A stretch of 64,000 bases of DNA from the IMG/VR virus record IMGVR_UViG_3300025326_000023, positions 1 through 64,000 of that record; one strand, 5' to 3'. Shown piece by piece: positions 20,300 to 20,458 of this stretch (position 1 is the first letter of the stretch; each line of letters begins with the position of its first letter). The position numbers and the translations under genes are program-made. Below the pieces are notes generated by a model. It did not search any database. It had not been told where the DNA came from and worked only from the letters and a program-made list of their open reading frames with translations. The DNA is from a virus.

Positions 20300-20458
20300 C
20301 TCGCATTGCCAAAGTTTTCACTGATCCACTGCGCCGCGCTCAGTGAAGTACTCCAGGCGGCGGCTGGTTCCCTCGCATTGCCAAACCTTTCAGTCATCCA
20401 CCGCGCCGCCACAGCGCTCATTCCTCGCCTTGCCAAACCTCTTACTTGCGACTGCGCC
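20300..20458 (-). CRISPR. Degenerate mini CRISPR array (3 repeats; 36-nt and 16-nt spacers)
   Basis: Repeats at 20300-20335 (26/36 identical to the main repeat), 20372-20407 (29/36) and 20424-20458 (35 nt), all with CTCGC...GCGCC ends. Confidence 0.8.

Follow-up and report, generated by a model that had tools for sequence, protein, structure and literature searches.

What is a short array of diverged CRISPR repeats doing on the 3' end of a Cas gene, in a viral genome that carries a longer array close by? The window (the whole stretch of DNA analysed here) comprises 64,000 nt, positions 1 to 64,000 of the linear IMG/VR record IMGVR_UViG_3300025326_000023 (73,658 nt, approximately 63% complete). 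The original prediction, drawn from the letters alone, regarded the mini-array as a fixed regulatory or homing guide kept apart from the variable array, with the 16-nt spacer as its privileged guide.

The source is a soil phage, apparently a temperate one. A plus-strand block that extends up to 20210 holds the terminase, portal and major head genes, and a minus-strand block runs from 20390 on. Upstream of the effector and on the same strand are a tyrosine integrase (24496-25407) and an XRE-type HTH gene (27232-27477); the other neighbours of the locus are proteins without known function. The features of the locus are listed below, with repeats R1 to R3 numbered along the plus strand and given a prime when read in the orientation of the gene.

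22330-22626, minus strand: zinc-ribbon ORF, 98 aa (CxxC...CxxC), ending ..AAGAVDD* in the first main-array repeat
21802-22347, minus strand: main array, eight nearly identical 36-nt repeats and seven spacers, two of them identical
20390-21751, minus strand: predicted nuclease-dead Cas12f-like effector gene, 453 aa (profile, AlphaFold2 model and Foldseek)
20459-20494, minus strand: flank upstream of R3', which resembles the zinc-ribbon ORF at its 3' end, reading frame included
20424-20458, minus strand: R3', the first repeat in gene orientation, degenerate (1.8 bits), translated in the effector tail as GAVASKRFGKAR
20408-20423, minus strand: 16-nt spacer GAATGAGCGCTGTGGC, translated in the tail (..NERCG)
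20372-20407, minus strand: R2', the most family-typical repeat in the genome, giving the effector stop (GAVDD*, TGA at 20390-20392)
20336-20371, minus strand: 36-nt spacer beginning GGAACCAGCC, target searches empty
20300-20335, minus strand: R1', third in gene orientation, sharing its last (3') 14 nt exactly with R2' and the solitary handle at G000 64306-64319
20290-20299, minus strand: 10-nt piece of a repeat 3' end, GCGATGCGAG, directly after R1'

The effector and the array on its 3' end

Direct family matches of the effector are weak (PADLOC Cas12f/Cas12u3, 1e-7; TnpB, 2e-3). A profile built from 22 homologs aligns with the active Cas12f 9nzq (E = 2e-6, residues 95-367 of the 433-residue chain) and more weakly with 9n9c (E = 2e-3). 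For the AlphaFold2 model (mean pLDDT 86.4), the best Foldseek match is AsCas12f 8j12 (E = 3e-14), and the natural dCas12f 9n9c is found at E = 1e-12; Foldseek and the family profile both place the protein in the Cas12f/TnpB fold. Throughout the family, LxPxIG stands at the position of the Cas12f RuvC-I motif and the RuvC-I aspartate is gone. Moreover, all 22 aligned members stop just past the beta-strand that precedes the zinc finger, and the TNB zinc finger and RuvC-III are absent. With its RuvC catalytic residues lost, the effector is predicted to be nuclease-dead. Inactivated Cas12f branches, some of them linked to phage integrases, are known at the survey level (PMC10691335), and a CRISPR-associated dCas12f cluster has already been described, the guides of natural dCas12f being 14-16 nt (PMC13472631).

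The family counts 108 representatives at E < 1e-30 among 1.84 billion cluster representatives. All members seen come from viral and metagenome contigs, with none found in 185,579 species genomes. By features, the nearest ESM Atlas clusters consist of unannotated proteins of 395-417 aa, and two of the top three are 64-78% viral among the members with a recorded taxon. The closest homologs (P0003-P0010) share 55-60% identity with the window protein. An insertion of 32 residues (AAEKAKAEADSPRRADPNGNGQHNGKLPPAPAQARA; residues ~233-264, ~20960-21055) is missing from nearly all homologs and is modelled with low confidence.

The effector ORF starts at an ATG behind AAGGAGG, runs through R3 and the 16-nt spacer and ends at a TGA inside R2. 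Its last 22 codons and the stop thus lie in the mini-array, and the original prediction was right that the end of the Cas ORF is encoded by repeats. R3' and the 16-nt spacer together measure 51 nt, so that the frame into R2' is preserved. The resulting tail, GAVASKRFGKARNERCGGAVDD, is present in none of the 21 aligned homologs; its pLDDT lies below 50 in the AlphaFold2 model, and it is predicted to be disordered.

The predicted anatomy of the mini-array itself, three variant repeats with CTCGC...GCGCC ends that enclose spacers of 36 and 16 nt, was likewise recovered at 20300-20458. R1 and R2 match the 36-nt main-array repeat at 26/36 and 29/36 positions, respectively, and R3, which is 35 nt long with one base deleted, matches at 27 positions. 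Scanning both strands of the 73,658-nt record with the main repeat gave at most 22/36 elsewhere outside the arrays, except for one solitary repeat with 25/36. All three repeats have TTGCCAAA in common where the main array has TCACCAAG. A piece of a fourth repeat, 10 nt of its 3' end, abuts R1 without a spacer and is marked by motif matches at 20300-20290 and 20296-20290. The mini-array therefore consists of direct repeats of approximately equal length, homologous to those of the cas-adjacent array, with unrelated spacers between them, as a CRISPR array does. A similarity of the 36-nt spacer to the duplicated main-array spacer (p = 0.035 before correction for six comparisons) was not accepted. 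The duplicated main-array spacers are adjacent (22204-22239 and 22276-22311), and in the three repeats around them GATGC replaces GAGGC.

Of ten soil or sediment runs from 2016 that contain the stretch, four (X1, X6, X8 and X10) gave contigs that match the locus including the mini-array with zero variants; these are uninformative on selection. The mini-array lies on the effector strand, downstream of the gene, as do the arrays of relatives. It is probably transcribed together with the effector, because it shares its strand and overlaps the end of the gene.

Family architecture and the origin of the mini-array

We compared 18 related loci, some of which represent one contig in two collections. 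All have their arrays on the effector strand, and 10 distinct loci have them downstream of the gene. The usual order on one strand is the effector gene, a zinc-ribbon ORF of ~95 aa and the array. The zinc-ribbon ORF is found in 15 loci (the window, L011:7139-7423, L013:7134-7409, L015:2398-2682 and 11 more) with four invariant cysteines; it usually overlaps the 3' end of the effector gene in the +1 frame, and its stop, a TGA, invariably falls within the first repeat. Patterns of the mini-array repeat, the main-array repeat and the zinc-ribbon motif retrieved no new relatives from IMG/VR.

In the window, the minus-strand order is zinc-ribbon ORF, main array, effector gene and mini-array, so both the main array and the zinc-ribbon ORF lie upstream of a gene that they follow in relatives. 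The family ORF corresponds here to the 98-aa gene that precedes the main array. The main array is therefore part of a complete canonical unit in an unusual place, and the mini-array occupies the canonical place minus the ORF. Among the other loci, only L010 has its array upstream; its zinc-ribbon ORF is downstream of the gene, with no array after it. The ORF that lies upstream of the zinc-ribbon ORF is no effector remnant.

By its position only, the zinc-ribbon protein could be the split-off TNB zinc finger of Cas12f; its profile gave no sequence similarity to solved Cas12f TNB domains. A helix lies inside the zinc-ribbon ORF (22480-22525, minus strand) and at the same place in 10 relatives, where TGCGAGC.GT pairs with AC.GCTCGCG. 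Its 5' arm is the sequence of the repeat 3' end, and its GCT CGC codons never vary. This helix, which is without covariation, may be an anti-repeat or scaffold element.

The flank of the mini-array carries a trace of the same architecture. Aligned without gaps from the repeat boundary outward, the sequence upstream of R3' matches that upstream of the first main-array repeat at 15/24 nt (mean of 6.7 at random genome positions, p = 6e-4) and at 19/36 nt (p = 0.002), read at seven lengths that were picked after an initial look at the alignment; beyond 36 nt there are no additional matches. The effector and zinc-ribbon ORFs enter the repeat in the same frame (..SASAA/GAV and ..SSGAA/GAV, respectively, with the slash at the repeat boundary). 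Moreover, homologs end 12-14 residues past the ..K.WK.KEA motif, and the window protein meets the first mini-array repeat after 16. The mini-array most likely represents a second canonical unit of zinc-ribbon ORF plus array that lost its ORF, because a likeness to the last part of such an ORF, reading frame included, persists just upstream of R3'. The two arrays of the window appear not to be recent copies of each other, since R2' matches the repeats of relatives (L013, 30/36; L015 and L024, 29/36) no less closely than it does the main repeat (29/36); the effectors of the relatives compared in this way are 33-48% identical to the window effector. The scenario that the original prediction set against itself, an older array left behind, is borne out as to origin by the flank homology, but the array need not be decay alone.

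Arrays in this family are often irregular. For instance, L013 has a 13-nt spacer beside a variant repeat, L018 a 22-nt spacer with a repeat shortened to 19 nt, and L025 a 3-nt spacer with a repeat shortened to 20 nt, while array periods in L022 range from 35 to 74 nt. The array of L020 (7216-7456) directly follows the zinc-ribbon ORF and consists of seven 14-nt repeats (GTAAGGTGCTGTGA) with a period of ~35 nt, two units being identical. Only a single repeat and a single guide follow the zinc-ribbon ORF in L009 (7056-7170) and L021 (6458-6531); in L009 this unit is succeeded by the first 8 nt of a repeat and then by a terminator hairpin. The arrays of the effector family seem to change by deletion and duplication, with the 3' 14-21 nt of the repeat surviving. 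Irregular short spacers and shortened repeats are common in relatives, and the 16-nt spacer is nothing special among them.

State of the repeats and possible guide units

A repeat profile made from relatives' repeats only, with no sequence from the window, scored R2' at 17.4 bits (E = 4e-4, the best in the genome), the main-array repeats at 13.9, R1' at 8.4 and R3' at 1.8. In addition to its deletion, R3' carries G at position -6, where 14 family repeats all have T, and has lost the in-frame stop that the repeat usually supplies (GAVDD*). It is through this decay, the 1-nt deletion and the loss of the repeat-supplied stop, that the effector seems to have gained its tail. In type V crRNAs the handle stands before the guide, and R3' would therefore be the handle of the 16-nt spacer. 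R1' and R2' agree at 31/36 positions, their five differences all falling in the 5' 22 nt (concentration p ~0.07); they keep a family-typical 3' handle of ~20 nt, of which the last 14 nt are identical. Between mini-array repeats the agreement otherwise stands at 27 positions, and the main-array repeats are nearly identical to each other. Such mutual divergence of the mini-array repeats would also fit complete decay.

The handle recurs outside the arrays. On its minus strand, the record contains 12 copies of the motif TTGGNNNTGYGAG, and on its plus strand none; ten copies are array repeats and two are solitary, where ~0.035 would be expected per strand. One solitary handle (64306-64319, minus strand), outside the window and 44 kb from the mini-array, shares 14 nt with R1' and R2' and 18 of its last 21 nt with R2'. 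It overlaps the start codon (ATG) of an ORF of 61 aa, which by eye resembles a winged-helix protein. The other belongs to a diverged full repeat (72213-72248, minus strand, 25/36), also outside the window, which stands 38 nt before the start codon of an ORF beginning MRPWTAPLLSLFCAALLAAA, a signal-peptide-like N-terminus by eye. A weaker candidate is present at 65368-65391 (minus strand) of the same record (G000). In G002, the phage of L013, solitary handles lie 12-25 kb from the array at 26817-26832, 39411-39426 and 12740-12755 (loci L047, L048 and L049). An exact 16-nt handle is located 12 kb from the array, and behind the one-mismatch handle at 39411 come ~60 nt and then an intrinsic terminator, an arrangement resembling a stand-alone guide RNA gene. 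Two other phages that were searched yielded no solitary handles.

Taken together with the family architecture, these data are best explained by a trimmed second unit of zinc-ribbon ORF and array, in which the 16-nt unit decayed and R2' and R1' are residual guides; we give this reading a probability of roughly one half. A second such unit would once have followed the effector gene, as in relatives, until a deletion took nearly all of its zinc-ribbon ORF and fused the effector ORF in frame to the last 8-12 codons of that ORF and hence to the first repeat. R3' and the 16-nt spacer would then have decayed through the deleted base, the changed invariant T and the lost repeat-supplied stop, and would now serve only as a disordered C-terminal tail of the effector, with the stop coming from R2'. 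The array is probably co-transcribed with the effector, in the co-oriented block that includes the integrase and the XRE-type gene. R2' and R1' probably still give one or two guide RNAs, with the 36-nt guide and the sequence after R1', because both repeats keep the family-typical ~20-nt 3' handle. After processing and loading, the guide-carrying dead effector would bind DNA without cutting it and presumably repress. The recurrence of solitary handles gives substantial probability to a continued use of R2' and R1'. The R3'-16-nt unit is probably dead and the R2' and R1' units are possibly alive. Points against this explanation are L010, where the array is upstream and none is found downstream, the mutual divergence of the mini-array repeats, and the empty target searches for the spacers of both arrays.

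The chief competitor holds that the mini-array is wholly a non-functional relic, which forms the 3' end of the effector mRNA and of which no unit is loaded. We regard this as rather unlikely. A relic would display repeats that have drifted apart, a degenerate R3', irregular spacers and the deletion of the zinc-ribbon ORF or leader, all of which are seen here. It would also agree with the empty target searches. No match with at most two mismatches and no terminal seed of at least 9 nt was found for the 16-nt spacer in the 73.6 kb of the record (~63% complete); the longest substring it shares there measures 9 nt and falls within a coding region. Public genomes offer no meaningful search for a sequence of only 16 nt. 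No target of the 36-nt spacer was found in its own genome, INPHARED or IMG/VR, and neither mini-array spacer matched INPHARED. Searched as exact 20-mers, the 36-nt spacer and the duplicated main-array spacer gave no IMG/VR match; the first 20 nt of the former match four unrelated taxa in genome_contigs, where the similarity ends. For the guides of the solitary units in G000, no second good match was found in that genome (one match with three mismatches lies at 323), and two guides of solitary units in G002 matched none of five phage records. In all, the phage records and public collections searched contain no target for any spacer of either array or for any solitary guide. However, R2' is closer to the family consensus than the main-array repeats are, a solitary unit 44 kb away contains an exact copy of the 14-nt handle that R1' and R2' share, and relatives hold working-looking solitary units far from zinc-ribbon ORFs.

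One candidate match was rejected. The main-array spacer at 21911-21947 resembles a spanin gene of Klebsiella phage vB_KpnS_IME279 and Escherichia phage sortkaff (30/33, E = 0.01), which is probably due to chance, as 3 nt lie in the repeat and the G+C contents differ.

The solitary units may form one set with the residual guides. This set of TTTGG-type units would comprise R2', R1', the units at 64306-64319 and 72213-72248 of G000 and those at 26817 and 39411 of G002. Several of these sit just before or on start codons, for which reason some might act in cis on the next gene. It is a doubtful but conceivable extension that such units are dispersed fixed single-guide genes for the dead effector, making up a multi-locus silencing network beside the variable array. 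If the solitary units are loaded, they would be hard-wired guides next to a variable array, a natural layout of multiplex CRISPRi and a source of very small programmable DNA binders.

The proposal that the R3'-16-nt unit is a privileged short guide, either regulatory in the style of CreA, scaRNA or tracr-L or homing in the style of V-K CAST, fared worse, and we consider it improbable. An atypical repeat with a short spacer does hold a fixed place beside the effector, and 16 nt is a full guide length for natural dCas12f (PMC13472631); L013 also has its 13-nt spacer by a variant repeat, and L009 and L021 have single fixed guides. However, the putative handle R3' is the most degenerate of the three repeats and is altered at an invariant position. 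The short spacers of relatives vary in place and come with shortened repeats, which resembles deletion rather than design. Autoregulation through the 16-nt spacer finds no site in the 73.6 kb, and the search of the phage's own genome that the original prediction called for, including seed-only matches, revealed no target of either mini-array spacer. As regards homing, no rve (DDE) transposase domain was found in the genome (the control matched in 6/14 genomes), and nothing CAST-like stands beside the locus; the TniQ profile control matched nowhere, and the CAST comparison relies on rve and the neighbour genes. No tRNA was found in the window. Of the guide kept apart as originally predicted, its own repeat variant, its separate unit, its position on the effector strand and its overlap with the gene end all stand, and separate guide units have precedents in L009, L021 and G002; the homing or regulatory role and the privilege of the 16-nt guide found no support.

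Searches for a scaffold were negative as well. No tracrRNA-like anti-repeat was found, the duplex energies of the repeat with the 330 nt upstream being equal to those of shuffled repeats. RNAalifold returned no structure in the last 139 nt and, in 234 nt, one invariant helix without a covarying scaffold; Rfam gave no match, and the main-repeat hairpin and a terminal stem both lack covariation across 14 repeats.

According to another suggestion, the mini-array and the solitary handles are RNA decoys, similar to RNA anti-CRISPRs, that soak up the dead Cas12f effectors of competitors. The mini-array repeats are indeed as near to distant relatives (30/36 for L013) as to their own main array, but no competitors with the exact handle were found (the 13 IMG/VR matches to the 16-nt handle are all single chance matches without an effector), and the phage's own effector of the same family would be soaked up too, which makes this very improbable. 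It is hardly credible that the basic 22-residue tail is a selected C-terminal extension: its frame into R2' is kept, but it is absent from the aligned homologs and of low pLDDT, and a GAVDD* ending arises wherever an ORF runs into the repeat.

Relation to known systems

We see the mini-array as real but ordinary, a feature of phage-borne nuclease-dead Cas12f systems, which are a partly described class. Its likeness to a V-K CAST homing guide lies in a diverged repeat with a shortened spacer, placed apart from the main array and beside a nuclease-dead type V effector. Unlike V-K CAST, the element is a temperate phage with a tyrosine integrase, and the rve domain, which TnsB carries, was not found. 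The mini-array also shares a degenerate repeat and a short spacer-like segment with CreA/CreR, scaRNA and tracr-L. These are crRNA-like RNAs with which Cas effectors repress promoters via partial matches; in the phage sequence, however, no partial match to a promoter or other site was found. Orphan and degenerate arrays, virus-borne mini-arrays and solitary repeat units have reportedly been treated by Medvedeva et al. 2019, Faure et al. 2019 and Camara-Wilpert et al. 2023. Like these, the locus has few and diverged repeats in a short array, the phage lacks adaptation genes, and further repeats stand alone elsewhere in the genome. It differs in that its repeats are those of the phage's own effector family rather than of a host system, and in that the array is joined to the coding end of the effector gene.

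The dCas12f proteins near CRISPR arrays and the Bacteroidota dCas12f-sigmaE system (Hoffmann, Wiegand et al., PMC13472631; PDB 9n9c) have in common with the phage effector the Cas12f fold and a C-terminal truncation that removes part of RuvC. They further resemble it in the association with arrays and in single guide units that look like array repeats, and short guides are plausible on this comparison (PMC13472631). Unlike dCas12f-sigmaE, no operon-linked ECF sigma factor accompanies the effector, and no Sigma70_r2 match was found in the phage's 73.6 kb (the control matched in 10/14 genomes). The phage family differs from the systems of PMC13472631 also in its separate zinc-ribbon ORF that stops in the first repeat, in its observed occurrence in viral and metagenome contigs only, and in a sequence nearer to the active 9nzq than to 9n9c. 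TldR (10.1101/2023.11.30.569447) is similar as a phage-borne nuclease-dead protein of the TnpB/Cas12 lineage with a fixed guide and presumably a repressor function. However, the phage family has multi-spacer arrays and a Cas12f-type fold, a scaffold of the omega-RNA type was not detected, and the effector family has no association with flagellin or oppF.

The locus illustrates how guide loci of phage-borne dead Cas12f systems may evolve without adaptation genes, by duplication, deletion and trimming to a ~20-nt handle and its guide, and it was through the mini-array that the solitary handles in two phage genomes came to light.

Gene junctions of the window carry AT-rich tracts built of AATGAnn-type heptamers (15235-15286, 20220-20290, 23838-23869, 24417-24489 and 38924-38945). 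The 16-nt spacer has only 8 nt in common with these tracts, and soil metagenome contigs hold other copies of the 20232-20271 tract in different surroundings.
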